Shown: piece after piece, positions 2,554-61,015 of the stretch
Layout: every line of letters begins with the position of its first letter
Numbering within the stretch: the stretch's first letter is position 1
From: an uncultured Mycoplasmatota bacterium
GTDB taxonomy: Bacteria > Bacillota_I > Bacilli_A > RF39 > UBA660
Length of the DNA stretch: 64,000 nucleotides
Assembly: GCA_900547225.1 (NCBI GenBank)
Contig: URFW01000003.1
Span: 13,054-77,053, forward strand
Direction of reading: 5' to 3'
The notes under the pieces: generated by a model
Seen by the model: only the letters and a program-made list of their open reading frames with translations
Told to the model about the DNA's origin: nothing
The model's database searches: none
Program-made: the position numbers and the translations under genes

Positions 2554-3645
2554 TTAGAATTCTTTTTTGCTTCTTAAAATAAGCTTCTTATTGTTTAGTA
2601 ATCTTTTGTTATTAGGTTCCATCTTTATTGCTATATCAACCCATTTTAAGGATTCATCTATTTCTCCTAAGTAAAACGTACTTATAGAAAGTAAGTCATA
2701 TATTGTGTAATCAAAACTAAAGGGTTCATTTATGTATGTTTTTTCATGAGTCTTAATATCTAGTGCCAAAAGGCAATATTTTTTAACAGCACTAAAGTTA
2801 TTAAGCTCATACTCTAAAAATGCCATTTCAACATATGCATCTCTTAAATAAGGAGCTTCATTAATTGCCTTATTAAGCCACATTTTAGCTTCTTCATATC
2901 TTTTTAAATATTTGTAGCATCTTGCTATAAAACGCATAGAAGCTGCTCTTTCATCTTTCCATGTTGCAGACTTTAGTGAAAGATGATAAATAAGTGTATC
3001 TATTGCTTCATTTAATTTTCCATAATACATATATTCTCTTCCTAAATAATGAACGTTTCTATCATTATAAGGATCTTCTTTTACAGATAATTCTAATAAA
3101 GGAAGATAACTACTTCTTGATTTAGAACTATCTGGATAATGATCAACTATTATGTCATTTGTAGTAGCCCAAACTTCATTGCTTCCAGTATATTTTAAAA
3201 CTTCATGAACCGGATTTATCCATTTAAAATTTTTTCTCGCATGTATTTTCTCATAGTAAAAACTTACCTTAGGGTTCTTATTTTCATCATGACTCCAGTT
3301 ATAAATATATCTTACGTGATTTACTTTTTCATTTTCTAATATTTCTTCTAGTTTTTCTCTCCAATTAGGACTTATTACTTCATCAATATCTATACATACA
3401 CATATATCAGCATCGAGTGGTACTAACTTTAAAGATTCATTTCTTGCAACATCAAACCTCCAAGGTTTTATTTCTTTAGTAGTTACTTTAGCTCCTAATT
3501 CTTTTAATATTTTAACAGTATTATCAGTTGAACCAGTATCTAAAACGTATATGCCGTCAGCACTCTTAACTGACTCATACCATCTTTTAGCAAATTTTTC
3601 TTCATTTTTACTTATGGCATAAACATATATTTTTTTCTTTTTCAT
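2554..3645 (-). CDS. family 2 glycosyltransferase with C-terminal TPR repeats
   Basis: N-terminal GT-A signature (VLDTGSTDNT ... DADICVCIDIDEV, a DxD-like motif) and C-terminal TPR-like Y/A/L-rich helices (KSATWKDERAASMRFIARCYKYLKRYEEAKMWLNKAINEAP...). This is the architecture of SunS-type and spore-surface glycosyltransferases. Confidence 0.8.
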   Translation of the reverse strand: MKKKKIYVYAISKNEEKFAKRWYESVKSADGIYVLDTGSTDNTVKILKELGAKVTTKEIKPWRFDVARNESLKLVPLDADICVCIDIDEVISPNWREKLEEILENEKVNHVRYIYNWSHDENKNPKVSFYYEKIHARKNFKWINPVHEVLKYTGSNEVWATTNDIIVDHYPDSSKSRSSYLPLLELSVKEDPYNDRNVHYLGREYMYYGKLNEAIDTLIYHLSLKSATWKDERAASMRFIARCYKYLKRYEEAKMWLNKAINEAPYLRDAYVEMAFLEYELNNFSAVKKYCLLALDIKTHEKTYINEPFSFDYTIYDLLSISTFYLGEIDESLKWVDIAIKMEPNNKRLLNNKKLILRSKKEF

Positions 3646-3661
3646 AAAAATATCCTTTCTT

Positions 3662-4414
3662 TTATTTTCCTAAATATTCTATGATTAATGTTAAACTAGA
3701 GTTTGTAAAGTAAGAATCAGAATCAATGTTTTGTAAATCTGGTGTATTAAGGTAAATATTTCTTTTTGACAAATTAGATAGTTCATATAAGTCATTAGTA
3801 CTATCTATAGATAAAATTCCTTCGGCGTGAATATGTGAGGTCTCTTCATTTCTATAGAAGCTACTAGCGCCCACATAAATATTATCAGTTCCAACCTTTC
3901 TAAATGCAAGAGTTGCAAAATCTATCTTTGGATCAAATTTTTCGTTAAAATATGGAACTCTTACGTATGCATTAAAAGATATTTTATAATATCCTTCTTT
4001 ATTAAACTTAATGGTATTATTATTAGAATCTAACTCTACTATGTTATTTGTATCAATTTCTTTTCTTTGAAGAGGAAGTCTTTCTCCTTTTAATATTTCA
4101 TATCCATCATCTGGATAATCTTTGTTAAAAGCAACTATGTATGCAGCATTTATTTTATTTGGAATGTTTTCACCATCTAATCCATCTTTTCCTTTTGGAA
4201 TCATAAAGGTTAAAATATGGTTATCATTAACTTTATTATCAATTACTTTTGCACTAGTATTAGAATCTACTGTTATTGTATCTTTAATTGTAATTGTTTC
4301 TGATTTAGCTAGAACGTATCTTGGCCTATTTAATTTATTTTTATTAATTTCGTTAATAGCATTATTTAATATGTTGCTACCACAATTACTTTTTTTTATA
4401 AAATTTTCATTCAT
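3662..4414 (-). CDS. collagen-like motif protein with C1q/BclA-C-like C-terminal domain (putative spore-surface protein)
   Basis: Single short GXY stretch IPKGKDGLDGEN, homologous to the FKIPKGDKGD modules of the divergent neighbour. The C-terminal roughly 130 aa have a jelly-roll pattern (GYYKISFNAYV...). It is divergently arranged with 4593-5729. Confidence 0.6.
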   Translation of the reverse strand: MNENFIKKSNCGSNILNNAINEINKNKLNRPRYVLAKSETITIKDTITVDSNTSAKVIDNKVNDNHILTFMIPKGKDGLDGENIPNKINAAYIVAFNKDYPDDGYEILKGERLPLQRKEIDTNNIVELDSNNNTIKFNKEGYYKISFNAYVRVPYFNEKFDPKIDFATLAFRKVGTDNIYVGASSFYRNEETSHIHAEGILSIDSTNDLYELSNLSKRNIYLNTPDLQNIDSDSYFTNSSLTLIIEYLGK

Positions 4415-4592
4415 ATTAATTATCTCCTTTCTTTAATATATTATTAGTTAACAAAAAAAGTAATAATTTTATATTCCTATATATTGCTTTAATTTAAATA
4501 TAATAGTTTTTTTGTTATAAATTAATTACACTTATACTTAAATAATTAATAAGCTATAATGATTAATTTAAAAAGATAAGGAGGATAATAAT

Positions 4593-5729
4593 ATGTATAA
4601 ATGTAATGATGATTATGAAAACATAAAAAGAAAAATAGAAGAGGAAAGAAAAAAATACAAATTTTGTTATATTAAAGGTCCGACAGGGCCAAAAGGGGAT
4701 AAGGGTGATATTGGACCTAAAGGAGAAAGGGGTCTTCCAGGTCCTACTAGTATTGATGTTGGAATAACAAAAACAGTAGAACCTTACGAACTTGCCAAAG
4801 TAGAAAATGTTGGAACAAAAAAAGATGCTATTTTAAACTTTAAAATACCAAAAGGGGATAAAGGAGATACAGGTCCTAAAGGAGAAAAAGGACTTACCGG
4901 TCCAAAAGGAGATAAAGGTGATACAGGTCCAAAAGGAGATATGGGAGAAAAAGGAGAAAGAGGAGAGCAAGGACCTTCTACTATACAAATTGGAAATATA
5001 AAAACAATAGAACCAGATGATAAAGCAGAAGTTATTAATGTTGGAACACCAGTAGATGTAGTTTTAGATTTTAAGATACCAAAAGGAGATAAGGGTGATA
5101 TGGGTCCTAGGGGACTTCCTGGTGAAATTGGAAGAACAGAACATATTGCAATAGATGAAACAGAAACGTTAGAACCTGGAGAAGATGCAACTGTTATGGA
5201 TACATTTGAAAATTGGGTACATCATCTTTCTTTTTCAATTCCAAAAGGCCAAAAAGGTGATACGGGTCCTAAAGGAGATATAGGTCCAGCAGGCCCGCCA
5301 GGAAAAGATTTTACATCTTCATATGGAATAAGATATTCTAATACAGAAACACAAATAAATTTACCTCAAGCTGTTGATACAGCACTTCCACTACCTGAAA
5401 AAGGAGCAGCATTGTTTACCGAATACATAAATGATAATTCAATTAAAATAAAAGAAAATGGTGTTTATTTAATATCATTTTCACTGTGTGGTGCAACAAA
5501 TGAAGATTGCTCTTTAACTACTTCTGTAAGGGCGAACGGGTTATTACAACCTGCTACTAATATTACTAGTGAATTTCAAGCTCAAATAATTAATTGCATG
5601 AGTGGTTCTACCATTGTATCTCTTAATCAAGATGACCTTATTACGTTAAATATAAAACCATCTATGACTGTTAATATGATATTTAATGGAAGTACAAGTG
5701 CAATGTTAAGTGTTGCAAAAATACATTAA
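4593..5729 (+). CDS. collagen-like triple-helix repeat protein with three internal beta-modules and a C1q/BclA-C-like C-terminal domain
   Basis: GXY runs (GPTGPKGDKGDIGPKGERGLPGP; GDKGDTGPKGEKGLTGPKGDKGDTGPKGDMGEKGERGEQGP; GDKGDMGPRGLPGE; GQKGDTGPKGDIGPAGPPGK). These are interrupted three times by an approximately 38-aa module that ends in ...FKIPKG(D/Q)KGD. The C-terminal domain is GVYLISFSL...ITLNIKP. Strong RBS AAGGAGGATAATAAT-ATG. Confidence 0.75.
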   Translation: MYKCNDDYENIKRKIEEERKKYKFCYIKGPTGPKGDKGDIGPKGERGLPGPTSIDVGITKTVEPYELAKVENVGTKKDAILNFKIPKGDKGDTGPKGEKGLTGPKGDKGDTGPKGDMGEKGERGEQGPSTIQIGNIKTIEPDDKAEVINVGTPVDVVLDFKIPKGDKGDMGPRGLPGEIGRTEHIAIDETETLEPGEDATVMDTFENWVHHLSFSIPKGQKGDTGPKGDIGPAGPPGKDFTSSYGIRYSNTETQINLPQAVDTALPLPEKGAALFTEYINDNSIKIKENGVYLISFSLCGATNEDCSLTTSVRANGLLQPATNITSEFQAQIINCMSGSTIVSLNQDDLITLNIKPSMTVNMIFNGSTSAMLSVAKIH

Positions 5730-5817: not shown

Positions 5818-7674
5818 ATGCAAATTATAGATGATAATACGGTTGTAGTTTATAGTAGCAACGAACTAAAACAGGCTTTAAGTGAAGCAAATAATTATAA
5901 TTATGTTTATTTAGGAAATGATATTAGTCTTGAAAGCGGTTTTACAATAAATGCTAATAAAATAAACATAACAATAGATGGAACTTATAATAATGTTAAG
6001 TATACTTATACTAATTATTTAACTAATGATTCGGATGTTATAAACGTTAGTACCTCAAACAAAAAAATCACTTTAAAAAATATGAATATAATAAGTTCAC
6101 ATACTTATGGAGTAGTTTATGTTCCATCTCATCCAAACTATTCTAACTTAACTGTTTTTTATAAAAACGTTAATTTTAATGGTGTAGAGCTTTCATGCAA
6201 TTATTATGGAATAACTAAGATTGTTGACTCAAATATAACAGGTGAAGATACAAATTCAGTTACCGTAAGAAAAATATGTGATTCTAATAGAATTATAATG
6301 GGGGGAAATACAACAATTACAAGTAGTTCAAATACTAATACTATTTTCTTTTTTAATGATGTTATTCCATCTTATATTAAAATAGTACCTAATAGTAATG
6401 TTAATATTACAACAAATAGGGAACTTATGAATGGTACTAATAGACTTGATTTAATAGTAGGGCATGGCTCAACTTTTCTATTAACTACTGGAAATGGGTT
6501 TGCAATAACAACAACACATGGTGCTAGAAACGTTTTAATAGAAGAGATGGCTAATTTTACCTTTATAGAAAAAAGCCATCAAAGAGTTCCAATGTGGAAT
6601 GTATTTGGGGATTTTAAGGTTTTAGAAGGTGCTAGTGTATCAGTTATAAATACGTATATGAATACACCAACAGATAATTATAATATTTATTTTAAAGGAA
6701 CAAATCAAAAGTTTATATTAGATAATCCAAAATACGTAAATATTTATACTAAAAATGCAAATGTAGTTTATACGAATAATCCGGTTGAGTTTTCATTTAA
6801 ATTTAGCAGGATAAACATGTGGATATATGCTCTTGATTATAATTTGGCATGTACACTTGATGATGCGCCAGCTTTTTCTTGGTTTAAAGAAAATACGCCT
6901 TCAAAAATAACAGGTACATTAAATAAAGATAATACGGTTATTTCATCTCATAATTTTACGGATAGTGAGTTAGCTCTATTACCAGATATAAGTAATTTCT
7001 CATTTCAAAGTAAAAAAATATTAACGATAGGAATGCTAAAGATGAACGTTCATCCACTTACTGCTACTACAAATGCTATATCAGGTCATACAATACCTTA
7101 TTCTAATGTAAAAATAGAGTATGATAATAAGAGTTTAACGCTAGAAGCAGATGAAAATGGTTTATTTGAAACTAATATTAATGATAATATTTTAGATAAT
7201 ACAAGAGTTAAAATAACTGCTTGTTTAAATGCTTGTTTTTCAGAAAAAAAGGTAATAACTCCTTTTAATGGTGAATTAACACTTCTAAACGTAACAGATA
7301 ATATTCCTTTTAGTATGATGCCATCATCTATAAATCCCGTTGTTTTACCTAAAAAAAATAAAACAGTAATAACTGTAGTTGATAGTAGAGTAAATAGTAC
7401 TAGTTGGAAACTTTATATAAATTATATAAATCCTATGATTGAAAAGGAAGGAAAAGTATTAATAGATTCACTGTTATTTAAAAAGTTTGATAATGAAAAA
7501 ATTAATATAAATGCAAATAAAAAAATGATATATCAATCAAATGATAACGGTGGAAATATTTCAGTAAGTAATGTTACTTTTTCTACTGATAAAGGATTGC
7601 TTTTAAAACCTAGTAAAAGTTTGTTAGAAGATGAAGATTATTCTACTTTAATAATTTGGAGTATAGAGGAGTAA
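5818..7674 (+). CDS. large Asn/Thr/Ser-rich secreted or surface protein, predicted parallel beta-helix N-terminal region plus Ig-like C-terminal domains
   Basis: 618-aa ORF with RBS GAAGGAGGAAGATAAA-ATG. Repetitive N-x-(I/V)-x-(N/G) strands (NINITIDGTYNN, NMNIISSHTYGVVYV, NVNFNGVEL, NVNITTNREL, GHGSTFLLTTGNGFAITTT). No recognisable catalytic motif. Confidence 0.55.
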   Translation: MQIIDDNTVVVYSSNELKQALSEANNYNYVYLGNDISLESGFTINANKINITIDGTYNNVKYTYTNYLTNDSDVINVSTSNKKITLKNMNIISSHTYGVVYVPSHPNYSNLTVFYKNVNFNGVELSCNYYGITKIVDSNITGEDTNSVTVRKICDSNRIIMGGNTTITSSSNTNTIFFFNDVIPSYIKIVPNSNVNITTNRELMNGTNRLDLIVGHGSTFLLTTGNGFAITTTHGARNVLIEEMANFTFIEKSHQRVPMWNVFGDFKVLEGASVSVINTYMNTPTDNYNIYFKGTNQKFILDNPKYVNIYTKNANVVYTNNPVEFSFKFSRINMWIYALDYNLACTLDDAPAFSWFKENTPSKITGTLNKDNTVISSHNFTDSELALLPDISNFSFQSKKILTIGMLKMNVHPLTATTNAISGHTIPYSNVKIEYDNKSLTLEADENGLFETNINDNILDNTRVKITACLNACFSEKKVITPFNGELTLLNVTDNIPFSMMPSSINPVVLPKKNKTVITVVDSRVNSTSWKLYINYINPMIEKEGKVLIDSLLFKKFDNEKININANKKMIYQSNDNGGNISVSNVTFSTDKGLLLKPSKSLLEDEDYSTLIIWSIEE

Positions 7675-7728
7675 TGCCTTTACAGAAAGGTATAATTATT
7701 CATAAAATATACCGTGATGAGGTGAATT

Positions 7729-8088
7729 ATGGCAAAAGAATATATTTATGTTAAACTTTATAATAATAATGGTCTAAGTTCAAATAATGTAAGAGTTAAA
7801 TTAAAGAATAAATGTAATAAGATTGTTTTTGATGGAAAAACAAATTATTTTGGAAAGATAAAAATACCAGTATGTAATAATAAAGTATATAAATTAATTG
7901 TCTATTATAATTTAACAAAAAAAGTAATACCTTTAATTGCAAGAGCAAATGAGGTTTATTGTATAAATATTGGTAGTAATAAAAATAAAAAACATCTTAT
8001 TGCAATTTTATTAAAGGATAAGAATTATCCAAATATAAGAATAGAAGGAGGCATGATGACATTATGTCAAGACACACAATCCCTATAA
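7729..8088 (+). CDS. hypothetical small protein
   Basis: 119-aa ORF with RBS GATGAGGTGAATT-ATG. Lys/Asn-rich with no motif. Its 3' end overlaps the next gene by 25 nt. Confidence 0.4.
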   Translation: MAKEYIYVKLYNNNGLSSNNVRVKLKNKCNKIVFDGKTNYFGKIKIPVCNNKVYKLIVYYNLTKKVIPLIARANEVYCINIGSNKNKKHLIAILLKDKNYPNIRIEGGMMTLCQDTQSL

Positions 8089-8609
8089 CGAATGGCAAAG
8101 GAAGTATTGAACTTGTTACTGGAACTTATAATGCACAAGCAGTAGCAGGAGGGTATGACGCTTCAACGTTAGATCCTAAAAGCGTTACCATAATAGATGG
8201 AACTGATACATATGCTTTTACAATAAGTGCAAAAGGTACGTTAACACTTCACGTAACGGATACGGGAGAAGCTAGTACGGGAGTACAAATTGTTGGTGCA
8301 AAGTTCATAAGAACAGATAGTACTGGAACAATAGTAGGAAAAGAAATAACAACTAATGATGATGGTAATGCGGTATTTGAAAATGTTCCGTATGCACAAA
8401 CTGGAAGTAATACAATTTATTATAAACAAATATCTGGAGATGGTGGACATACATTTGATGATACAGTAAAATCAATTACAATGACACAAGAAAATGAAAC
8501 AGTTGAAATTAAAAACCCAGATGCACCAATTAGAAACTTTACTTTAATGGATGCAAGTTTTCCAAACATCCCAGTTATAGATGGGCAAATAATACTTGAT
8601 GATAATTAA
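8064..8609 (+). CDS. Cna-B / prealbumin-fold-like domain protein
   Basis: RBS AGGAGG upstream of ATG 8064. Motif G-AKF-x-R-x-D-x-G...T-x-DDG-x-A-x-F-x-N-V-P-x-(A/G) (VGAKFIRTDSTGTIVGKEITTNDDGNAVFENVPYA) is characteristic of Cna-B/SpaA-type transthyretin-like domains. Confidence 0.5.
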   Translation: MSRHTIPITNGKGSIELVTGTYNAQAVAGGYDASTLDPKSVTIIDGTDTYAFTISAKGTLTLHVTDTGEASTGVQIVGAKFIRTDSTGTIVGKEITTNDDGNAVFENVPYAQTGSNTIYYKQISGDGGHTFDDTVKSITMTQENETVEIKNPDAPIRNFTLMDASFPNIPVIDGQIILDDN

Positions 8610-8933: not shown

Positions 8934-9587
8934 TTAATCAGCAGAACTGTAATTTAAAGTAATATTACCAAATGCAACGTTAAAGTCACCATCTGCTCTA
9001 TTTGTACCAGCTTCATATTCTAGAGTAATAACTACTGCTTCGCCATTTTCTTTAGCTAAGGTATGACCAGTTATAGAAGCTTTGCCAGTTGATGTTTCAA
9101 GTTCATTTCCAACTTTTACTTTAACAGAAATCTTTTCACAAGCTTTTTGAACTAATTCATCACTTGTTCCAGCAGATGCAGTACAAACTTTAGTAGCGTT
9201 TTGTCCAGTTATGTTTTCAAATACTATACTTTTTAAGAATGCATTTAACTCACCAGCATTATAAGCATAAAATTTATACACAGCTGTTTGTCCAGGTTCG
9301 GTAAAAGTTGCACTTAAATTTGAAATGGTTGGATCGTTACTATTATCAATTATACCGTTTGTTGCAACAAGGCTGTTTGGTGTAACAACTGGAGTAATTT
9401 CAGTAACTTCAGCTTTTGATTCAGCACTAGAGAAAATAACGTTCATAGTACTATTATCTGGTTTTACATTTGCACTAGATTGAATGTTTAAAACATTAGA
9501 AAATGATGCAAAATCAATAGATAAACCAATAACTCCAACGATTAAAGCAACTATTGCTATTACCTTTGCCTTTTTATTTCTTTCCAT
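8934..9587 (-). CDS. divergent TasA/camelysin-like secreted protein (paralog of the 35.8-39.4 kb family)
   Basis: N-terminal K-rich segment plus hydrophobic helix ending in ...DFASFSN, comparable to the AxFSD SipW-cognate motif. The body and C-terminus align with the other paralogs (EPGQTAVYKFYAYNAGELNAFLKS versus YPGAYVTIPVTITNKGSVSAKLKN, and ITLEYEAG versus ITLEYEQAK). Confidence 0.55.
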   Translation of the reverse strand: MERNKKAKVIAIVALIVGVIGLSIDFASFSNVLNIQSSANVKPDNSTMNVIFSSAESKAEVTEITPVVTPNSLVATNGIIDNSNDPTISNLSATFTEPGQTAVYKFYAYNAGELNAFLKSIVFENITGQNATKVCTASAGTSDELVQKACEKISVKVKVGNELETSTGKASITGHTLAKENGEAVVITLEYEAGTNRADGDFNVAFGNITLNYSSAD

Positions 9588-11821: not shown

Positions 11822-12532
11822 TTATGCTAATTTTACTATGTTTAAATAAGCACTTGTTCCACTTGTTGGAGTTACTGTTGCGTTAGTGCTAGATTCAAGT
11901 GCTAGAGCTATTTCATCACCATTTTGAAGTGTTACAATAATACTTCCTTGAAGTGATTCATCACTATTAGCAGTTACTTCTTTTGTTATTGTAGAACCTG
12001 CTATTTGTGTTGTATTTTTTGTTACGTCAAGTGTTAATGTTGCAGCTGCATTAGATGAGCCTTGGAATAGATAATCTATTTTATAAGTACCATCAGATGT
12101 TATTGTTAATGTATTAGCATTATTACCTGTTATGTTTTTTAATACTCCTGTTGTTGTAAGAGGTACTACAGTTTGTGTACTTGCTGTTAAGTTTATGGTG
12201 TTTTCAGTTGCATCATATTTACTTGCAAATGCATCAAGTGCATTTGATGCAGCAGGCCCAGTAGGACCAGTAGGCCCAGTAGGTCCGGTTTCACCTTGTG
12301 CACCAGTATTACCTGTTAAACCTTGAATGCCCTGAGGTCCAACAGGCCCAGTAGGTCCAGTAGGCCCAGTAGGTCCGGTAGGTCCAGTTGCTCCAGTAGG
12401 TCCAGCGGGACCTCCTGCAGGCCCAGTAGGCCCCGTTGGCCCTGGAATGTATCTTGGACAGCAACATTTGTTTTTTTTCATTTCTAATAAGGCAGCATTT
12501 AAAATATTACCTTCATAACATTCATTATTCAT
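11822..12532 (-). CDS. BclA-like collagen-like exosporium glycoprotein (GPT-repeat) with C1q/TNF-like C-terminal domain
   Basis: N-terminal CCCPRY followed by (GPT)n/GXY for about 70 aa ([63 protein letters not shown]). A Thr/Ser-rich 140-aa C-terminal domain follows. Possible sigma-K-type -10 CATATTATA about 25 nt upstream of the RBS, on the minus strand at 12555-12563. Confidence 0.8.
12250..12455 (-). repeat. in-frame 9-bp periodic GGN-CCN-ACN tandem repeat encoding the GPT collagen-like region
   Basis: Runs of ccagtaggcccagtaggtccggt... are visible directly. This kind of tract typically varies in length between strains. Confidence 0.7.
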
Positions 12533-35789: not shown

Positions 35790-36302
35790 ATGAAGAAACA
35801 AAGTATAGCAATTATTGGCGTTATAGCATTCGTTTTAGCAGTTGTAGTTGGATATGCATTATTTAGTGATAATTTAACTGTTAGTGGTAGTGCAACCGCA
35901 ACCGGAGATTTTGATGTTGAGTTTACTAGTGTAGGAGAAATTACTAAGGTAGGTTATACAGCAGTTGATGCAACTGAAATAGCAAAAATTTCTGAAGATA
36001 AAAACACGTTAACGGTAACTGTTAATAAGCTTGATTATCCAGGTGCTTATGTAACAATTCCTGTTACTATAACTAATAAAGGTTCAGTTTCAGCCAAATT
36101 AAAAAACATTAATGAAACCGGGTTAACACAAGATAATAGAGCAATAAAAGTTACATATACAGGTGTTGCAGCAAGTGATACGGTAATAAAAACTAATGAT
36201 ACTCAAGCAATGAATATTAAGGTAGAATGGGATCCATCTATAAATACCGGATCATCAGACGTAACTTTCCAAATCACTTTGGAATACGAACAAGCAAAGT
36301 AA
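35790..36302 (+). CDS. TasA/camelysin-like secreted protein with SipW-cognate signal peptide (paralog 1)
   Basis: MKKQSIAIIGVIAFVLAVVVGYALFSDNL fits the SipW-cognate class signal (hydrophobic helix followed by G-Y-A-x-F-S-D). Roughly 140-aa beta-rich body. RBS AAAGGAGAGAAGATTATA-ATG. Confidence 0.65.
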   Translation: MKKQSIAIIGVIAFVLAVVVGYALFSDNLTVSGSATATGDFDVEFTSVGEITKVGYTAVDATEIAKISEDKNTLTVTVNKLDYPGAYVTIPVTITNKGSVSAKLKNINETGLTQDNRAIKVTYTGVAASDTVIKTNDTQAMNIKVEWDPSINTGSSDVTFQITLEYEQAK

Positions 36303-36345
36303 AAATAGGTCATCCTATTTTTTTTAATATGTGAGGTGGATAAAA

Positions 36346-36864
36346 ATGAAAAAACAAAACATGATAATAATAGTCGTGGTTGCTTTTTTGCTTACGATAA
36401 CAATTGGTTACGCATTATTTAGTGAAAGTTTGAGCATCAATGGAACAGCTTTAGCAGAAGGAACTTTTGATGTTGAATTTACTTCTGTTGGAACACCTAC
36501 GTGTATAGGTTTTACCGGAACATGTGATTCTAATACATTAACTGGTATTTCATCTGATAAAAATACGTTAAACGTGACCGTTAATAAATTGGAATTTCCA
36601 GGTGCTTATGTTGAATTTCCTGTTACCGTAACTAGTAAAGGTACTATTCCTGCGGTTTTGGAAAGTATTTCAGAAACAGGACTTGAAACTGATGATACCA
36701 TAAAGGTAACATACACCGGTATATCCGAATTAAAGGGCCAAAAATTAGAACAAAACGGGACTCAAACTTTTAGTATTAAAGTTAAATGGGATGAAAATTC
36801 TAATAAATCTTCTGAAAACGTGCAATTTTCAATAAAAATGAATTATAAACAAATTGCAGAATAG
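36346..36864 (+). CDS. TasA/camelysin-like secreted protein (paralog 2)
   Basis: …IGYALFSESL signal and a body collinear with paralog 1 (KLEFPGAYVEFPVTVTSKGTIPAVLESI). Start set to ATG 36346 after RBS GTGAGGTGG. Confidence 0.65.
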   Translation: MKKQNMIIIVVVAFLLTITIGYALFSESLSINGTALAEGTFDVEFTSVGTPTCIGFTGTCDSNTLTGISSDKNTLNVTVNKLEFPGAYVEFPVTVTSKGTIPAVLESISETGLETDDTIKVTYTGISELKGQKLEQNGTQTFSIKVKWDENSNKSSENVQFSIKMNYKQIAE

Positions 36865-36981
36865 TTATTGCTTAGAGGTGGAAGTAAATTCCGCCTTTTA
36901 AATTGAAAAAAACTGCTATTTATGATAGTATTTATATGTAAAAATAGAGATAAATATGATATGACATAGAAGGGGTAATTT

Positions 36982-37587
36982 ATGGAAACACATTCAAAAA
37001 ATAAAAAAAGTTTAAAAATTATTAGTGTTATAGTTGCAATATTGGTGTGTTTAATGAGTGTTGGTTACGCCTTTTTTAGTGATTCTTTATCTATTAATGG
37101 AGTTGCATCAACCGTTGATTACTATAGTGGTACAATGCTTCCAACAAACCCTATTATGTTAAAACCTGAAGATAATTTATATAGTACCTATGATACGTCT
37201 AGAAGTAAACTTTCTTTAAGGGAAGAACACTGGGTTGGAGACACTTTTATAGTAATTTGGAACAAGGGAGTAGGTATTTCAATATCAAGAAAGACAATTA
37301 CTTATACAATTTCATTTTCTAATCCAACTGAACTTCCATATACGAATGGACAAGTTACTACTAAAATAGAAAATAATGGTTTAGGTTATATAAAAAGTGC
37401 AACAGGATCACTTTCTAAAACTACATTACAGCCCGGTGAGGCAGTAGAAGTTAAACTAACTATTACATCTAATTTTTTATCAAGACTAGATGATCAAGAT
37501 ATAACTGCTACAATTTCATATGAACTTCAAGGGGAGACAAAGTATTTTTACTTTGTAGTTAAGTATCGCGGTTGGGATAATGATTAG
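36982..37587 (+). CDS. TasA/camelysin-like secreted protein (paralog 3, divergent body)
   Basis: …VGYAFFSDSL signal. The body is more divergent and Thr/Ser-rich. Confidence 0.6.
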   Translation: METHSKNKKSLKIISVIVAILVCLMSVGYAFFSDSLSINGVASTVDYYSGTMLPTNPIMLKPEDNLYSTYDTSRSKLSLREEHWVGDTFIVIWNKGVGISISRKTITYTISFSNPTELPYTNGQVTTKIENNGLGYIKSATGSLSKTTLQPGEAVEVKLTITSNFLSRLDDQDITATISYELQGETKYFYFVVKYRGWDND

Positions 37588-37615
37588 TATATTTAGGAAT
37601 AAGGGTGGTGAAAGA

Positions 37616-38812
37616 GTGAAAAGAAGATTAAAAATAATTTTATTGTCGATATTAATTTTAATATCGGCAGCACTTGAGTTTGCGGGCTTATCAGCTCATT
37701 TTGGATCTTCTTATTCTTATGTTATAAAACCAATTATTTGGGTGTTTATTGGCATAATAACGTATTTTTTCTTTAATGACGATGTTATTCCAAATCTAAA
37801 GCATAAAAAAGAAGTAGAGTTTTATACAATAGTAACAACACTTATATACTTTGTAATATATTTTGGTTTAGGTTATATAAAAGGTTTTGCACATAATCCA
37901 TATGACTACACGCTAAAGGGAGTATTAAATAATTTATGGGTGTTTGTTCCTGTTGTAATTGTAAAAGAATACGTAAGATATTACATGATTAATAATACTG
38001 GTACAAAAAATATATTATTACATGCATTATTAATTTCTATTTTACTTACTATGATAGATTTAAATATATACAAGCTTAACTCTTATTTTTCAACGTCACT
38101 AAGTGTTTTTGAATTTATAATTCAAAACTTTATCCCGAAATTGATAACAAATTTATATTTAACATACATATCATACTATGCTGGATATAAAACTACAATT
38201 ATTTATGCTTTCATACCACAATTTTTGTTGTATGTTTTACCAATACTTCCAGATTTGGATATGGCAACAATGTCTATTCTAAATTCATCTATTCCATTTT
38301 TCTCTTATGTTTATATAAATTATATTATAAATAAGCTAGAGAAAACGTTGGATAGGAAAAGAAATAAAGTGGTGGGTATAAAAGGATATGTATTAATGAT
38401 TTTATTTGTTATCATCATGATTTTATTTGGGCTTGGTATATTTAGTGTTCAACCGCTTGTTATTGCAAGTAATAGCATGTTACCTAGCATAAGAAAGGGA
38501 GATATTGTAATAATAACAAATAAGAACACCAAAAAAATAAAAAAAGGAGAAATAATAAGATATAGGATTGATAATTATTATGTTGTCCATAGAGTTGTTT
38601 TAATAAAAAAAGATGAAAGAGGAAACAGAACGTTTATAACTAAGGGAGATAACAATAGCAACATTGATCTTTTTGCGGTAAAAGAATCTCAAGTAGATGG
38701 GGTTGTTAAAGTGGATATTCCTTATTTAGGTTACCCGACTTTATTGTTTAATAAACTACTAAATACTGGAGTAGATAAAAGGGTTATAATTGATAAAGGA
38801 AGAATAAATTAA
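37616..38812 (+). CDS. sipW: SipW-type (archaeal/ER-type) signal peptidase I fused to a ~260-aa polytopic N-terminal membrane domain
   Basis: The C-terminal roughly 130 aa carry the SPase boxes (IASNSMLPSIRKGD with the catalytic Ser in SM-x-P, YYVVHRVV with His, and TKGDNN). The N-terminal about 260 aa are highly hydrophobic with at least 7 predicted TM helices and no recognisable motif. Start set to GTG 37616, which is 5 nt after AAGGGTGGTG; the six-frame ORF begins at 37580. Confidence 0.75.
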   Translation: MKRRLKIILLSILILISAALEFAGLSAHFGSSYSYVIKPIIWVFIGIITYFFFNDDVIPNLKHKKEVEFYTIVTTLIYFVIYFGLGYIKGFAHNPYDYTLKGVLNNLWVFVPVVIVKEYVRYYMINNTGTKNILLHALLISILLTMIDLNIYKLNSYFSTSLSVFEFIIQNFIPKLITNLYLTYISYYAGYKTTIIYAFIPQFLLYVLPILPDLDMATMSILNSSIPFFSYVYINYIINKLEKTLDRKRNKVVGIKGYVLMILFVIIMILFGLGIFSVQPLVIASNSMLPSIRKGDIVIITNKNTKKIKKGEIIRYRIDNYYVVHRVVLIKKDERGNRTFITKGDNNSNIDLFAVKESQVDGVVKVDIPYLGYPTLLFNKLLNTGVDKRVIIDKGRIN

Positions 38813-38920
38813 TTGTAAAATAATGACAAATAATATCATAAATAAACATAGTTTGTCTGATATCATTGAAGTTTATATTAATTGTTGTTATAATTTTTTA
38901 ATAGGAGCATATGAAAATAT

Positions 38921-39415
38921 ATGAAAAAACAAAATCTGTTAATTATATTGATTATTTTTTCTTTGCTTGTTATACTTATTGGATATTCGGTTTTTAAAAT
39001 GAGTGCTAATATAAGGAATGTAATGACATCTAATAGTGATATAAACGTAGAGTTTAAAAGCATCGGAAAAATATATGAAAGTGGAAGTGTTGGTGCTGAT
39101 GCAGTTATATCAAAAGATAGAAAAATAATTTTTATAAACATTCCTAAATTAACTTATCAAGGAGCTTACGTAATTATACCAATAATGGTAGAAAACGTTG
39201 GTACAACACCTGTAAGATTAAGTTCTATTTATGAATATGATACAAAAGATAGTGACACAATAAAGGTGTACTATGATGGTATTGCAATAACTGATAAGGT
39301 TTTAAATCCAGGTGATGTTGAGGAATTTAGAGTCAAAGTGATATGGGAAAATAAACAGGATAATAAACCAATTAAAATGAATTTTTACTTAAAATTAAAT
39401 TACGTTCAAGAATAG
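38921..39415 (+). CDS. TasA/camelysin-like secreted protein (paralog 4)
   Basis: …IGYSVFKMSAN degenerate signal. The body aligns with the other paralogs (KLTYQGAYVIIPIMVENVGTTPVRLSSI). Confidence 0.6.
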   Translation: MKKQNLLIILIIFSLLVILIGYSVFKMSANIRNVMTSNSDINVEFKSIGKIYESGSVGADAVISKDRKIIFINIPKLTYQGAYVIIPIMVENVGTTPVRLSSIYEYDTKDSDTIKVYYDGIAITDKVLNPGDVEEFRVKVIWENKQDNKPIKMNFYLKLNYVQE

Positions 39416-39427
39416 GAGGTATATGAC

Positions 39428-40522
39428 ATGAAAAAGCAGAGACTTCATGGTAAAACTATAAAAAAAATCGTTGTATCTATTTTATTAGTTTTTGCTTTGG
39501 TTGTACAGTTTGCTTTTTTAAGCTATTTATTTAAGGCAATATCTCCAAATAATGATAAAAGTAATGTAATTATGGATTATACATCAAGTGGAAATTTAGA
39601 TTATAAGGTATATTTGAAGCAAAATGATTTTATTGATAGTACTTATCTGAACGCTGGTGAAGCTTATGTTTTGGATTTGATTGATCACATAAAAATAATT
39701 TCACTTTATGATTTTAAATCAACAAATAAGACAAGCGTGACAGGAACTAATAAACTAATTTCAAAATTAAAAGTATATTATAAAGAATCAACCGACAAAA
39801 GTAGTAATCCTGAAGTTATGACTAAGGAAAAAACATTAGATGAAAAAGTAATGAGTTTTAATGACAATAAGTTTATTTCTTCGGGTGAATATGATTTATA
39901 CTTGGATGAATATATAAATATAATTAAGGAATTTCAAAATAAAGTTAAGATAGCAGTAGATGGATATTTAGAAGTATCTGAAGTAAATAGCTTTTCTGGC
40001 AAAGTAGGTGGTGCATCTTATGGGGATACATATTCTAATACAATAAAGATACCTTTATCATCTTCGGTTGTTAAAATAGAAAGTGATGCATCAAATCCAA
40101 AAACAAAATCCGTATACGAAAGTGACCTAGTTAAAACTAATAAAATAGTTTTGAACTATATCGTAATAGCAAACATAGTTACTTTCATAATAATTTGTTT
40201 CTTACTTAGAAAGTTATTTACGTTTACTAATAAAACTGAGTATGAAAGAGAACTTAATAAGATACTTAAGAATTATGATGATATAATTGTAAATACTAGA
40301 ACAATGGTTGATGTATCTGATTATAAGTTAATCAAAATAGAGGATTTTAAAGAAATTCTTAATTTATCTAGGGAACTTTTATTACCAATTATGAATTATG
40401 AAATAGAAAAAGGAAAGGCAACGTGTTTTTATGTTATTAAAGATGATATACTATACACTCACTTAATTTATGATAAAAATGCGGAAGAATATAAAAATAA
40501 AATATATAAAGAGGGCTATTAG
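39428..40522 (+). CDS. two-TM accessory membrane protein of the TasA/SipW cluster (TapA-like role is speculative)
   Basis: N-terminal signal-anchor, roughly 200-aa extracytoplasmic domain, a second TM (IVLNYIVIANIVTFIIICFLL), and a 100-aa cytoplasmic tail. It starts 10 nt after paralog 4. Confidence 0.5.
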   Translation: MKKQRLHGKTIKKIVVSILLVFALVVQFAFLSYLFKAISPNNDKSNVIMDYTSSGNLDYKVYLKQNDFIDSTYLNAGEAYVLDLIDHIKIISLYDFKSTNKTSVTGTNKLISKLKVYYKESTDKSSNPEVMTKEKTLDEKVMSFNDNKFISSGEYDLYLDEYINIIKEFQNKVKIAVDGYLEVSEVNSFSGKVGGASYGDTYSNTIKIPLSSSVVKIESDASNPKTKSVYESDLVKTNKIVLNYIVIANIVTFIIICFLLRKLFTFTNKTEYERELNKILKNYDDIIVNTRTMVDVSDYKLIKIEDFKEILNLSRELLLPIMNYEIEKGKATCFYVIKDDILYTHLIYDKNAEEYKNKIYKEGY

Positions 40523-53856: not shown

Positions 53857-55763
<1,907 letters not shown>

Positions 55764-56270: not shown

Positions 56271-56345
56271 TGGAGCAAGTGAGGAGAATCGAACTCCCGT
56301 CTCAGCCTTGGCAAGGCCGCGTACTAGCCGTTGTACTACACCTGC
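56271..56345 (-). tRNA. tRNA-Gly (anticodon GCC)
   Basis: Reverse-complement folds as acceptor GCAGGTG/CACTTGC, D-arm GTAC-AACGGCTA-GTAC, anticodon stem CGGCC/GGCTG with loop TTGCCAA, T-arm GGGAG-TTCGATT-CTCCT, and 3' TCCA. Confidence 0.85.
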
Positions 56346-56353
56346 AAATAAAT

Positions 56354-56428
56354 TGGAGGGGCCAGCCGGATTTGAACCGGCGATCGTGGAGTTGCAGTCC
56401 AATGCCTTACCAGCTTGGCTATAGCCCC
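56354..56428 (-). tRNA. tRNA-Cys (anticodon GCA)
   Basis: Reverse-complement: acceptor GGGGCTA/TGGCCCC, anticodon loop CTGCAAC, T-arm GCCGG-TTCAAAT-CCGGC, and 3' TCCA. Confidence 0.8.
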
Positions 56429-58707: not shown

Positions 58708-59814
58708 TCAATTTGTATTTGATATTTTCTTTTCTTTTAAACACTTTATAAAAATAATTGTTAAAATTATAAATATAGGAATAGCAATAAAAGGAACATA
58801 ATAATTTTTTATAATCATAATAGAGTGTGGGATGTTTCCGAATAATGTATTAGCACTTATAATTGATATTATACTTATTAAAATAATTAAAATATAGTTA
58901 GTTTTTTTAGAAATTTTAAAAGTTTTTAAATATGTATTAATTCCAAAAAAGGATGTGTAACAAAGAGCAAGTATATAAAATAACCATCTAAATGCTAGTA
59001 AGTTTTCTATGTGCAGTCCAGATGATGTTATTCCAATTTTTTTAAGTAAAATATATTCTGGATATCTAAATAAAGTAGCCATATTAAATCCAAAACACGA
59101 AACTACATAAAACATTACAACAAGTAAAGCTATTTGAGATATTAAATAGAAAATTAAAAATGTTTTATTAAATCTTTTTTTATCTATTATTTTATCTTTG
59201 TTAATTGTTAAAAGTAAAATAGATAATAAAGCTGAGGAACAAGCTTCATATATAGCGGCATCTATTATTTTAAATACATATTTTTTATTTATTATAATAG
59301 GTAGTATATTATCTATTTCTATATAATGAAAAAGTAGAACTTCTATTATAATTACTAAGATTAAACTTATTATAAATGAGATTTGTGATATTCTAGATAT
59401 TACTTCTATGCCCTTTAAGCTGATTATAAAAACGGTTATTAAAATAAGTATTCCAACAAAATAAAAAGGTGTGTTTTGTAGGTATTTACTTGTTACAAAT
59501 ATAACTGATGCTCTAATTGATACGATAAATAAAAACAAGTAAAATAAAAATATTAATGCATTAAATATATTTGCTATTGGTTTTTTAAAAAGTTTTTTAT
59601 TTTTTTCAAATATATTAAGATTTGTATGTGTATTATTTATTTTTAAATACATTAGTATGGGAATAAGTCCTATTATAGCACCAATTATAACTCCTATTAA
59701 AACGCCATTATTAGCTTTTCTAAGCAATATTACATCACTTAGACCTATATACATACTTAAACATATTAAAGTTAAAAGCATGCTTATTTGAGTACTTGAT
59801 ACTTTATTATTCAT
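58708..59814 (-). CDS. spore germination protein, GerAB/GerKB family (amino-acid-permease-like B subunit)
   Basis: 368 aa with about 10 TM. Third gene of the ger operon, overlapping the upstream gene by 8 nt. Confidence 0.8.
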   Translation of the reverse strand: MNNKVSSTQISMLLTLICLSMYIGLSDVILLRKANNGVLIGVIIGAIIGLIPILMYLKINNTHTNLNIFEKNKKLFKKPIANIFNALIFLFYLFLFIVSIRASVIFVTSKYLQNTPFYFVGILILITVFIISLKGIEVISRISQISFIISLILVIIIEVLLFHYIEIDNILPIIINKKYVFKIIDAAIYEACSSALLSILLLTINKDKIIDKKRFNKTFLIFYLISQIALLVVMFYVVSCFGFNMATLFRYPEYILLKKIGITSSGLHIENLLAFRWLFYILALCYTSFFGINTYLKTFKISKKTNYILIILISIISIISANTLFGNIPHSIMIIKNYYVPFIAIPIFIILTIIFIKCLKEKKISNTN

Positions 59815-61015
59815 AACTATTTTCCTTTCTAACTGATTTTATAGAAAGCTCAGTTGATTTTATTTGTACATTAGTATTAAATTTAAAACTTATTTTATTT
59901 AATATATCTTTATTTTTATACCCTAATTTTTTAGTTTCTTTGTATTTTTTACTATAGAATTTTTCTGCATATTTAAGTACATCAGCTTTTTCTTTAACAT
60001 ATAGTTTATCTATTGTTTTATTCATTAAGGTATTAATTCTATTTTTTGCTTTAATCTCTAATTTTTTTATTACTTTATCATTATTTAAAAAGTCTGATTT
60101 ACAATTATATTCTAAAAGATCAGCATCAATTTTTGTTTTAATATTTACTATTGGATTATTATTTTCATAATAAAGATTTTCTTTAAAATTGCTGTTATTA
60201 AGTCTTAATGTTGCGTAATTTTTACTGTCGCATTTAACATTTACGTAAGTCTCTTTAGCAACATTAGCTAAAAAATTATATCCAACACTTTCATTAGTAG
60301 TTAAATATCCTTTAAGTTTATTATTTTTAAAGTATCCAAGGGTATCAAATGTTAATTTGGTATTAGGATTACTTTCTTTTATATTGTCCATCTTTTCACC
60401 ATTATTTATCTTTCCTTTTATTTTTACAGATGGAATAATTGCTTCTGTTTTTGAATTTGATAAATCAGATATAAATTCATCTATTGTAACAACTGTTAAA
60501 ATACCACTAAAGTTATCTGCAACCGACAAAGTTGATCTTAGGTTTTTAGAAGGTAATGTTTCAAGTGGCGTTATTACCTTTAAAATGCTAGATGCATCTT
60601 TTTCTTTTGAAACCATAACTGCAGAATCTTTTTCGGACCCTGGGTCTCTCATAAAGTAATCTAGATAATTAAGGGGATTTTCTTTTTTTAATAATTCTTC
60701 ACTTATTACAACAACTTCATTATGACCTAAGTATAATTCTTTTGGAGAATCAAGCATTATTTTTTCAAGGGCATCATATATTGTTTTTCCACTAGCTTCA
60801 TAAAATGTTATTAAACTACTATCTGATTCTTCATCTTTTTTAGCATTCATTATTTGTATTCCTACTTTATATTTATTTACACTTTTTCCTTTATTTTCAT
60901 CAATTGATATACCTGATACTATTGCATAATCATTTATTTCTTTGTAATTAAAACAACCACTTAAGGTAAATAGGATAATTATAAAAACTATTGAATTAAA
61001 TATCTTTTTCATCAT
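59807..61015 (-). CDS. spore germination lipoprotein, Ger(x)C family
   Basis: Signal peptide with lipobox LSGC, then ...YAIVSGISIDEN typical of GerAC-family proteins. Confidence 0.8.
   Translation of the reverse strand: MMKKIFNSIVFIIILFTLSGCFNYKEINDYAIVSGISIDENKGKSVNKYKVGIQIMNAKKDEESDSSLITFYEASGKTIYDALEKIMLDSPKELYLGHNEVVVISEELLKKENPLNYLDYFMRDPGSEKDSAVMVSKEKDASSILKVITPLETLPSKNLRSTLSVADNFSGILTVVTIDEFISDLSNSKTEAIIPSVKIKGKINNGEKMDNIKESNPNTKLTFDTLGYFKNNKLKGYLTTNESVGYNFLANVAKETYVNVKCDSKNYATLRLNNSNFKENLYYENNNPIVNIKTKIDADLLEYNCKSDFLNNDKVIKKLEIKAKNRINTLMNKTIDKLYVKEKADVLKYAEKFYSKKYKETKKLGYKNKDILNKISFKFNTNVQIKSTELSIKSVRKENSYE

Follow-up and report, generated by a model that had tools for sequence, protein, structure and literature searches.

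A BclA-architecture collagen-like protein with three phage-type beta modules in its stalk heads a conserved four-gene cassette in an uncultured gut Bacilli lineage

The gene at positions 4593–5729 (+ strand, stop codon at 5727–5729) of the window, by which we mean the whole 64,000-nucleotide stretch of DNA analyzed here, encodes a 378-residue collagen-like protein, CLP378. It is a protein of BclA architecture with an acquired phage-type stalk module, not a tail fibre, and as such a genuine, neat variation on a familiar protein type, not a novel sort of system. The reading we prefer, with modest confidence, is that CLP378 forms a homotrimeric spore-surface fibre that is produced by the mother cell and carries the modules as nodes along its stalk. 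Its most likely producer is the mother cell during sporulation of an uncultured gut bacterium of the Bacilli, and its most likely location the spore surface, which it would share with the proteins encoded by the next three genes.

The open reading frame begins with ATG, preceded by AGGAGG 7 nt upstream, and its product consists of an N-terminal helix, four Gly-X-Y tracts that alternate with three modules (M1–M3), and a C-terminal head. The N-terminal region (aa 1–28, 4593–4676) is hydrophilic and comprises a charged helix, predicted at aa 5–21, followed by KFCYIK; at least 90% of orthologues retain Cys4 and Cys25, the latter lying four residues ahead of the first Gly-X-Y triplet. Reading onward on the + strand, tract 1 (8 triplets, aa 29–52, 4677–4748, matched by Pfam Collagen) leads into M1 (aa 53–87, SIDVGITKTVEPYELAKVENVGTKKDAILNFKIPK, 4749–4853), tract 2 (14 triplets, aa 88–129, 4854–4979, rich in KGD and KGE) into M2 (aa 130–164, TIQIGNIKTIEPDDKAEVINVGTPVDVVLDFKIPK, 4980–5084), and tract 3 (6 triplets, aa 165–182, 5085–5138), which contains a nearly invariant lead-in, GPRGLPGEIGRT, into M3 (aa 183–218, EHIAIDETETLEPGEDATVMDTFENWVHHLSFSIPK, 5139–5246). 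Tract 4 (7 triplets, aa 219–239, 5247–5309) connects M3 to the head (aa 240–378, 5310–5726). The collagen region as a whole, 35 triplets with three interruptions, scores 57.5 bits against Pfam Collagen (cut-off 27.2). Its triplets had been predicted to be rich in Lys and Asp, and residue counts agree: position X is Pro in 12 triplets, Asp in 11 and Glu in 6, position Y is Lys in 13 and Thr in 7, there are nine KGD and three KGE, and KG[DQ]KGD follows every module.

The three-fold alternation of modules and Gly-X-Y runs proposed in the original prediction is real, as judged from this layout and from pairwise z-scores of 6–17 among the modules. M1 and M2 are identical at 19 of 35 positions, with a BLOSUM62 score of 97 vs. 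20.9 ± 4.5 for shuffled sequences (z = 16.9; 0 of 2000 shuffles reach the real score), while M1 vs. M3 and M2 vs. M3 give z = 6.5 and 6.2 (0 of 2000 each). The repeat is also visible in the DNA, where positions 4701–4883 and 4932–5114 form a direct repeat of 183 nt with 71% identity and a spacing of 231 nt, and three copies of a repeat family, at 4766, 4997 and 5159, lie in register within the modules; the internal periodicity therefore extends past the Gly-X-Y tracts. The modules are 35–36 residues long, the approximately 38 given earlier having counted the first triplet that follows.

A fourth copy is found in the divergently transcribed neighbour N250 (3662–4414, − strand), which had been said to retain one module and does so at aa 40–75 (TITIKDTITVDSNTSAKVIDNKVNDNHILTFMIPKG, 4190–4297, − strand). 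N250 consists of an N-terminal helix, this module, three triplets (GKD GLD GEN) and a BclA/C1q-type head. Its module aligns with M1, M2 and M3 at z = 5.7, 5.4 and 10.2, with 2, 2 and 0 of 2000 shuffles reaching the real score. Scores of these four copies against a module profile (68–74 bits) are circular, the profile having been seeded with the same copies, so that the pairwise z-scores are the independent support for their kinship; homologues of N250 and orthologues score 30–57 bits against broader module profiles. The module consensus, about 36 residues long, reads T-I-x-V-G-x-T-x-T-x-x-P-G-x-x-A-x-V-x-[ND]-x-G-T-...-L-[DN]-F-x-I-P-x-G, and in its F-x-I-P-x-G exit the F, P and G are invariant. 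The beta character assigned to the modules is consistent with AF2 models of CLP378 and N250, in which each copy is predicted to contain three strands (monomer AlphaFold; pLDDT 87–90 in N250 and 40–52 in CLP378); those of M1, at 53–62, 69–72 and 78–86, are of low confidence. The module-plus-Gly-X-Y unit behaves as a copy-number-variable cassette, with alleles that have two (P0003, P0004, P0017), three or four modules (P0005, P0018), where the two- and four-module alleles come from metagenome assemblies and could in part be repeat-collapse artefacts.

The head places CLP378 in known company. By its AF2 model (pLDDT 75–91) it is a jelly roll of the BclA/ExsF/TNF-C1q type. Superposition on the C-terminal domain (CTD) of BclA (1wck, 2r6q) gives a TM-score of 0.76 and an rmsd of 2.6 Å (Foldseek), and the top Foldseek matches are BxpB (8d02) and ExsFA (7r5i), at E of about 1e-6, 19–21% identity and TM 0.52–0.58. 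The Pfam BclA_C model matches at 33.7 bits, under its cut-off of 38. The head is also homologous, at a profile E-value of 3e-18, to that of BclA236, a 236-residue BclA-like paralogue encoded at 11822–12532 (− strand), whose own BclA_C match (49.8 bits) is above the cut-off. These head relationships, together with a chromosomal, non-phage context, adjoining BclA-like genes and a gerA operon in the genome, speak against the earlier suggestion that CLP378 represents a distinct fibre type. The difference that had been drawn between CLP378 and BclA236 stands in so far as the latter has a GPT-type stalk free of globular inserts, but this stalk is not strictly uninterrupted, as it contains one extra Gly. 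No NCBIfam model of a Bacillus-type exosporium leader matched any of the three BclA-like proteins of the window at E ≤ 0.1, but HMMER filters can lose short leader models, and the N termini of BclA proteins outside Bacillus may differ.

In total, three BclA-architecture genes lie within 9 kb. On its other side N250 is adjoined by a gene for a family-2 glycosyltransferase with TPR repeats (2554–3645, − strand), which is found beside the cassette described below in only 4 of the 63 orthologous loci. An open reading frame at 4122–4436 (+ strand) overlaps N250 on the opposite strand and was treated as spurious.

CLP378 is the first gene of a cassette, CLP378-p618-p119-p181 (378, 618, 119 and 181 aa), that is kept, between differing flanks, in 55–59 of 63 orthologous loci. 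In the window, p618 (5818–7674), p119 (7729–8088) and p181 (8064–8609) all follow on the + strand, and p181 overlaps the p119 gene by 25 nt. Neither p618 nor p119 belongs to a family: p618 has only a weak Big_6 match (E = 0.005) and no PHROG match. For p181 there is a weak prealbumin-like (SpaA) match (E = 0.0026), and PDB sequence searches with p618 and p181 returned nothing significant. The four cassette proteins have no signal peptide or hydrophobic N-terminal segment, their maximal 15-residue hydropathy being ≤0.72, compared with 2.98 and 3.37 for a pair of window proteins that do have a hydrophobic N-terminal segment. BclA is likewise made without such a segment.

The retention of the cassette also fits a second reading, possible in our view although distinctly less probable than a BclA-type surface fibre, in which CLP378 would not belong to a general hairy nap but, with p618, p119 and p181, would make up a separate appendage or adhesive complex of the spore, serving there as tip fibrillum, anchor or stalk, with the highly conserved M3 or the N terminus as its docking site. 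Consistent with this, a BclA-like gene and a p618 paralogue occur as a duplicated pair in one locus (L033), and M3 with its lead-in is more conserved among orthologues than the head (entropy 0.16 vs. 0.43 bits), M3 being the most conserved segment of CLP378. Such strong conservation suggests a specific function, which the idea of the modules as clamps leaves unexplained. In addition, the best fold match of the N250 head is F-BclA, the tip fibrillum of the spore appendages called F-ENA (9h38, TM 0.81–0.84), and both the anchor and the tip of F-ENA are collagen-like proteins (PMC12357932). Against an appendage, no Ena-type subunit family (DUF4183, DUF3992) was found in the cassette, and the cassette partners are without any family assignment. 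Moreover, distant homologues in two loci (L064, L066) have M3-type modules although about 8 kb around them contain no homologue of p618, and M3 as a docking site for p618 is unsupported on this ground.

The upstream regions of orthologues bear on whether CLP378 is made in the mother cell. AC-N16/17-CATAnnnTA, a motif of the sigmaK/sigmaE (mother-cell) type, is present in 31 of 64 such regions vs. 0.5 expected from mononucleotide shuffles (maximum 4). The window's own region upstream of CLP378, the divergent intergenic region shared with N250 (4415–4592), has no strict match to this motif, and its aligned sequence is ACTTAAATAATTAATAAGCTATAATGA. No sigmaK-type promoter was found for any of the window's own genes. 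CATAnnnTA by itself is about as frequent in the window as chance predicts (93 matches vs. 92 expected); sites of this kind near p618 (5789) and BclA236 (12554) were rejected as sigmaK promoters, as a −35 element with the correct spacing is absent. A scan for sigma-70 promoters and terminators was uninformative in this AT-rich window (46 promoter-like sites vs. 50 expected, and no terminators). Expression in the mother cell would resemble that of C. difficile bclA1-3, which are under sigmaK control (PMC3789822) and with which the orthologues share a sigmaK-type motif. The window also contains a gerA germination operon (GerA at 459 bits, GerAC and Spore_permease), and uncultured Bacilli of the RF39/RFN20/ML615J-28 type are predicted to include sporulators (PMC10868615). 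The host belongs to an abundant, uncultured low-GC lineage of gut Bacilli.

The original prediction held interrupted triple helices with repeated globular inserts to be more typical of phage tail fibres than of exosporium proteins, and annotated tail fibres do combine this module with Gly-X-Y tracts. A module profile search at E ≤ 1e-3 matched representatives of 9,684 protein clusters, and a single protein can contain as many as 25 copies; most of the matches are phage-tail-fibre-like, and the module usually alternates with Gly-X-Y. Among the top 150 module proteins, 464 of 770 inter-module linkers (median 15 aa) are mostly Gly-X-Y. The "putative tail fiber protein 1" of Eggerthella phage LE2-3 has about a dozen copies, further copies occur in annotated tail fibres of Gordonia, Microbacterium, Stenotrophomonas and Pseudomonas phages, and the Pfam domains that co-occur in 68 multi-copy module proteins are of tail-fibre type, namely Peptidase_S74, Phage_fiber_rpt, Phage_T7_tail and BppU_N. 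Through the module-plus-Gly-X-Y unit, CLP378 shares with annotated tail fibres a fibrous shaft of repeated modules, presumably trimeric. No Pfam or NCBIfam model covers the module in isolated modules, whole CLP378, the Eggerthella phage fibre or six multi-copy proteins, and PDB sequence searches with CLP378, single modules and a 23-sequence module profile matched only collagen peptides or, spuriously, antibodies. FibU of phage 80alpha (6v8i) was considered as a solved example of the module and rejected, as the match depends on its collagen part, a region not modelled in that structure (PMC7048315).

This abundance in annotated tail fibres speaks for a third reading, that CLP378 serves as receptor-binding tail fibre to a prophage, a tailocin or another particle of phage origin. 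Its best PHROG matches are to tail-fibre families (phrog_5073, 10972, 4440 and 819) and reach E-values of 1e-18 to 1e-26, and in BFVD its fold matches collagen-like proteins of phages and giant viruses, although that fold search yielded only non-rigid collagen-protein matches with huge rmsd and was set aside. We nevertheless consider a tail fibre improbable. No capsid, tail, terminase, lysis or integrase genes occur near CLP378, no phage genes were recognized among the window ORFs flanking the cassette, and the neighbours, identified from translations and partly by Pfam, are murI, flavodoxin-type genes, a glycosyltransferase and a DNA glycosylase-like gene. The cassette lies in varied chromosomal flanks in about 60 species-level genomes, again with no phage genes recognized there, and GC content is uniform. 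The protein itself has no N-terminal tail-attachment domain: its N terminus is 28 residues long, and Pfam and PHROG alignments span the Gly-X-Y and module region only. Least likely of all, and very doubtful, is a vegetative-cell collagen-like adhesin of the Scl/Lcl type, exported and wall-anchored, to which weak NCBIfam matches (Lcl, SclB and SclA, 50–56 bits) might point, as these lie far under the cut-offs of 325–500 and are due to Gly-X-Y only, the head is BclA/ExsF-like, and CLP378, unlike Scl1, Scl2 and Lcl, has no signal peptide, LPXTG or other cell-wall anchor.

For CLP378 as a BclA-type spore-surface fibre, assembly may proceed as follows. The TNF/C1q-type jelly roll would trimerize the chains and nucleate the collagen helix, whose folding would then proceed toward the N terminus; there the conserved Cys just ahead of the first triplet may staple the end. 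The stalk would be a triple helix of about 30 nm without hydroxyproline, in segments of about 7, 12, 5 and 6 nm, probably held together by many interchain Lys-Gly-Asp/Glu salt bridges; KGD and KGE salt bridges are reported to stabilize triple helices and to flank interruptions (PMC11923368). Going by the monomer models, each chain would contribute a three-stranded beta meander to a compact trimeric node of beta structure, which would be continuous with the helices on both sides, entered through ..GP[ST] and left through ..F-x-I-P-K-G-D-K-G-D. Such nodes could act as internal registration and re-nucleation clamps, and might appear as thickened or hinge points.

As they lack hydroxyproline, bacterial collagens must nucleate long triple helices, keep them in register and stabilize them by other routes. 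If the proposal is correct, a small, autonomous trimeric node, insertable between Gly-X-Y tracts, would provide one of these, and could serve as a building block for designed collagen materials. We raise only tentatively the broader idea that the module of about 36 residues represents a very large, uncurated and structurally unsolved class of trimeric collagen-interrupting nodes in phage and spore fibres, that the cassette is an undescribed spore-surface fibre system of uncultured gut Bacilli with reduced genomes, and that the near-invariant M3 is a docking site or the main folding nucleus. A structure of the module would allow thousands of proteins of tail fibres and spore fibres to be annotated in one step, because at least 9,684 clusters match it and it has neither a Pfam or NCBIfam model nor a detectable solved structure. 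The conserved cassette is a candidate for a structure of the spore surface, and therefore for a part in transmission or adhesion in the gut, in a lineage whose sporulation has so far been predicted from genomes only.

Among the closest known systems are collagen-like phage tail fibres. LE2-3 tail fiber protein 1 has the same module family alternating with Gly-X-Y tracts, but phage collagen fibres end in other C-terminal receptor-binding or chaperone domains, and CLP378 lacks both the phage context and the tail-attachment domain of tail fibres. EPclB of an E. coli prophage (Col-Pf2-Col) likewise has a small internal non-collagen module between Gly-X-Y tracts, seen by EM as an internal globule between two collagen stalks (PMC3368898); its insert, however, is Phage_fiber_2 (PF03406), which neither the modules nor whole CLP378 match. 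The head shares its TNF-like trimeric jelly roll with BxpB and ExsFA of the B. cereus group exosporium basal layer, which are without a collagen stalk and superpose on it at lower TM than the BclA CTD. With the BclA family (B. anthracis BclA, C. difficile BclA1-3 and B. thuringiensis F-BclA), CLP378 has in common the order of N-terminal region, Gly-X-Y stalk and TNF/C1q-type head, the lack of a signal peptide, several paralogues per genome and a spore-former context. Published diagrams show BclA proteins as NTD-CLR-CTD, their collagen-like region unbroken (PMC13188886), whereas the stalk of CLP378 is broken by three beta modules of 35–36 residues, its triplets are rich in KGD, KGE and GPK rather than GPT, and its gene sits in a conserved four-gene cassette.

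The 378-aa collagen-like protein CLP378 (4593..5729, + strand; ATG start, preceded by AGGAGG) is a BclA-architecture protein, and hence of a known kind; its stalk is unusual in being segmented. A mechanical parse of its Gly-X-Y (GXY) runs cuts it into nine segments: an N-terminal region (aa 1–28, MYKCNDDYENIKRKIEEERKKYKFCYIK), eight triplets (aa 29–52), module M1 (aa 53–87), 14 triplets (aa 88–129), M2 (aa 130–164), six triplets (aa 165–182), M3 (aa 183–218), seven triplets (aa 219–239), and a 139-aa C-terminal domain, the head (aa 240–378). The modules are 35–36 aa long, are entered directly from ..GP[ST], and are left via F-x-I-P-K-G, every one exiting into KGDKGD or KGQKGD. The triplets are rich in Lys, Asp, Glu, and Pro (nine KGD and three KGE in 35 triplets). 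M1 and M2 are identical at 19 of 35 positions (z 16.9), with z-scores of 6.5 for M1/M3 and 6.2 for M2/M3; none of 2000 shuffles reached the observed scores, and the resemblance among the three is well above chance. DNA repeat detection found a 183-nt repeat in the gene (spacing 231 nt, 71% identical) and a three-copy family in register within the modules, separate from the periodicity of the GXY tracts (9 and 27 nt). Because these repeats lie beyond the GXY periodicity, the three-fold module-plus-GXY build of the original prediction stands on the parse, the pairwise scores, and the DNA repeats alike.

Pfam recognizes Collagen in CLP378, together with BclA_C at 33.7 bits, below the gathering score of 38. 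An AlphaFold2 model of the monomer, based on 59 orthologues, shows a confident beta sandwich at aa 250–378 (pLDDT 75–91); the stalk scores low, which is no surprise when one chain of an obligate trimer is modelled alone. Among PDB structures, Foldseek matched the head to BxpB (8d02) and ExsFA (7r5i), exosporium proteins of the B. cereus group (E about 1e-6); the best superposition was with the BclA C-terminal domain (1wck, 2r6q, 2z5w; TM 0.76 on target, rmsd 2.6 Å), and TNF and C1q family members ranked below these. A profile of the head also matches that of BclA236, a 236-aa BclA-like paralogue (11822–12532, − strand; E 3e-18), which itself passes Pfam BclA_C. The N-terminal region is predicted to be a charged helix and contains two conserved cysteines, the second of which precedes the first triplet by four residues; by hydropathy, no segment there comes close to signal-peptide strength.

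The GPT-type stem of BclA236, originally described as uninterrupted, carries one extra glycine within aa 31–45, which calls to mind the lone G-G break reported for collagens of E. coli prophages. The neighbouring 250-aa protein N250 (3662–4414, − strand) does contain one module, as had been proposed, at aa 40–75 (z 5.7 vs. M1, 5.4 vs. M2, and 10.2 vs. M3), after which come just three triplets and a C-terminal domain of 165 aa; its homologues have zero, one, or two modules each. The AlphaFold2 model of N250 (48 homologues, mean pLDDT 83) is the best evidence in this analysis for the secondary structure of the module, predicting three strands (40–49, 56–62, and 65–73; pLDDT 87–90). Its head is modelled as a BclA/C1q/TNF jelly roll that best matches BclA (3tyj) and F-BclA (9h38; TM 0.81–0.84), the latter being the tip fibrillum of F-ENA spore appendages. 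Antisense to the N250 gene is a 104-aa ORF (4122–4436, + strand) with a hydrophobic, low-complexity translation, most likely spurious in this AT-rich DNA.

The closest genome record is a human-gut “Bacilli bacterium” MAG (99% identity). About 60 species-representative genomes encode orthologues of CLP378 at 56–78% identity; they are titled uncultured Bacilli, Tenericutes, or Mollicutes, Clostridium sp. CAG:433 and CAG:417, Mycoplasma sp. CAG:611, and Acholeplasma sp. CAG:878, which we take to be names of the RF39/RFN20/ML615J-28 group. Both sporulating and non-sporulating species are predicted in that group (PMC10868615). The window contains a complete gerA-type germination operon (58708–62444, − strand; GerA at 459 bits, GerAC, Spore_permease), indicating that this uncultured host, formerly labelled “Tenericutes,” is equipped for spore germination.

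Two further loci in the window merit mention. A 624-aa large serine recombinase (Resolvase, Recombinase, and Zn ribbon; 53877–55751, − strand) is separated by about 500 nt from a tRNA-Gly/tRNA-Cys pair (56271–56428, − strand), and the site may mark the edge of an integrated or a developmentally excised element. At 35790–40522 (+ strand), four paralogous proteins of 164–201 aa, each bearing one hydrophobic segment at the N terminus (35790–36302, 36331–36864, 36982–37587, and 38921–39415), accompany a 410-aa polytopic protein with a C-terminal Peptidase_S26 signal-peptidase domain (37580–38812) and a DUF5305 protein (39428–40522); this looks like a dedicated signal peptidase with a secreted fibre or matrix-subunit system. 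A fifth small protein of this sort (8934–9587, − strand) adjoins the CLP378 cassette. No Pfam family was found in the three small proteins scanned (8934–9587, 35790–36302, and 36982–37587).

Alignment of the 200 nt ahead of 64 CLP genes revealed a conserved block, TTATACATTTTAAAAATATTTTCATAAATTAAAATAG, and 31 of these regions contain the pattern AC-N16/17-CATAnnnTA (expected from mononucleotide shuffles, 0.5; maximum, 4). The sigmaE and sigmaK promoters of C. difficile, where bclA1-3 are sigmaK-controlled, have the same −10 but a different −35 (ATA versus AC; PMC3789822). Since the block fits either sigmaE or sigmaK spacing, “mother-cell type” is the safe label. The region upstream of CLP378 itself and its two closest relatives in the alignment (..ACTTAAATAATTAATAAGCTATAATGA..) falls outside the strict pattern, so that only orthology points to mother-cell expression of the gene in the window. 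We infer that CLP378 is located on the spore surface because it is built like BclA, lacks export signals, lies in a spore-former context, and has orthologues with the promoter motif.

CLP378 belongs to a conserved, uncharacterized four-gene cassette of an uncultured gut lineage. Among 63 orthologous loci, homologues of three proteins of 618, 119, and 181 aa (p618, p119, and p181; 5818–8609, + strand) lie downstream of it in 59, 56, and 55, respectively, with order and strand preserved. The other flanks are not conserved; a glycosyltransferase is nearby in only 4/63 loci and N250 in only 11/63. A second set, in tandem, is present at one of the loci, L033, where a BclA-like protein is accompanied by paralogues of p618 and CLP. 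Export signals are absent from all four cassette proteins, and searches of Pfam, NCBIfam, PHROG, and PDB sequences gave no convincing match for p618, p119, or p181. That CLP378 and these partners build a separate spore appendage or adhesive complex is a serious alternative to a spore-surface filament of the BclA kind, although we consider it rather unlikely.

The stalk module is common in phage fibres, yet it has no curated family or structure: no Pfam or NCBIfam model covers it, whether in the proteins of the window, a phage tail fibre with a dozen copies, or multi-copy representatives, and no PDB chain matched a module profile. A profile of 22 sequences and 36 positions, searched against 1.84 billion cluster representatives, matched 9,684 proteins at E ≤ 1e-3, 2,560 at E ≤ 1e-10, and 421 at E ≤ 1e-30, with up to 25 copies per protein. 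Among the best 150, 145 have GXY runs, and 464 of 770 inter-module linkers (median 15 aa) are mostly GXY, making alternation of module and short collagen a common design. In the 68 of them scanned with Pfam, the co-occurring domains were Collagen (29), CBM_5_12 (4), Peptidase_S74, Phage_fiber_rpt, and BclA_C (2 each), and Phage_T7_tail, BppU_N, and PTR (1 each); heads like those of the window proteins occur in five of the 150. With tblastn, M2–M3 matched 15 phage records, some annotated as tail-fibre or minor-tail proteins (Eggerthella, Gordonia, and Stenotrophomonas phages) and others as hypothetical (Microbacterium, Pseudomonas, and other records). Between its GXY tracts, the Eggerthella LE2-3 protein has the canonical form, ATIAVGTVTTGDPGTAAQVTNSGDTTNAVFNFTIPQG, and the PHROG families matching CLP378 are tail-fibre families. 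The proposed phage link thus holds for the stalk module; for the whole protein it is not supported, nor is the idea of a distinct fibre type, given the BclA architecture and the lack of phage context. No phage structural genes were recognized among the window's ORF translations, GC is uniform (0.21–0.32) across the first 16 kb, which includes the locus, and an attachment domain is absent, making a phage or tailocin fibre very improbable. Slimmer still is the chance of a vegetative Scl/Lcl-type adhesin, a collagen-like protein that would be at odds with the absent export and anchoring signals.

Some N250 homologues (P0160, P0165, P0200, P0225, L071:6551-7522, and L081:3772-7542) have a second small inter-collagen module, ..ILGSY....EL...HP.G..GD.YLV..DLYVW......W..VG.I.GP.G., which is also present in the LE2-3 tail fibre; more than one stalk insert is therefore common to spore-type and phage-type collagen fibres.

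Close relatives of CLP378 (84–99% identity) include alleles without M1 or M2, some more distant ones have M1 or M2 duplicated, and species-level orthologues have two or three modules. Five metagenome-derived alleles (P0003, P0004, P0017, P0005, and P0018) have two or four, and their breakpoints fall within GXY tracts, as would be expected if collagen-coding repeats had recombined or assembly had collapsed them. Module plus GXY thus behaves as a copy-number-variable unit, assembly collapse being possible for some alleles. Among 59 orthologues, M3 has a mean entropy of 0.16 bits and 91% identity to CLP378, compared to 0.52 bits and 74% for M1, 0.41 bits and 81% for M2, 0.43 bits and 74% for the head, and 0.39 bits and 55% for tract GXY2. 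M3 and its lead-in, GPRGLPGEIGRTEH (5085–5246, + strand), are nearly invariant and exceed the head in conservation. The M3 type and its lead-in, G-x-R-G-x-P-G-E-I-G-x-x-E-H-I, remain recognizable at 32–34% identity in Clostridia MAGs (L064 and L066), where no p618 neighbour was found within the flanks. The role of M3 is probably intrinsic to it, such as that of a head-adjacent node that carries folding onward; a docking role specific to the cassette is less likely. The lead-in is similar, though not identical, to the GLPGER integrin-binding motif of streptococcal Scl1.

In BclA and C1q/TNF-headed collagens, the head trimerizes and nucleates a triple helix that zips toward the N terminus. The CLP378 head would likewise trimerize the chains, the helix propagating from it to the N terminus; with 0.286 nm of rise per residue, its 105 GXY residues would span about 30 nm, split into lengths of 6.9, 12.0, 5.1, and 6.0 nm. 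Stability without hydroxyproline would come from interchain KGD/KGE salt bridges, which one recent analysis describes as over-represented in collagens and as flanking interruptions (PMC11923368). The beta meanders of the three chains may form a three-fold node that locks chain register, restarts the helix past the interruption, and adds a bead or hinge. A precedent for a module between collagen segments is EPclB of an E. coli prophage, in which two such segments are split by Pf2, an internal globule by EM (PMC3368898) that differs from the CLP378 module.
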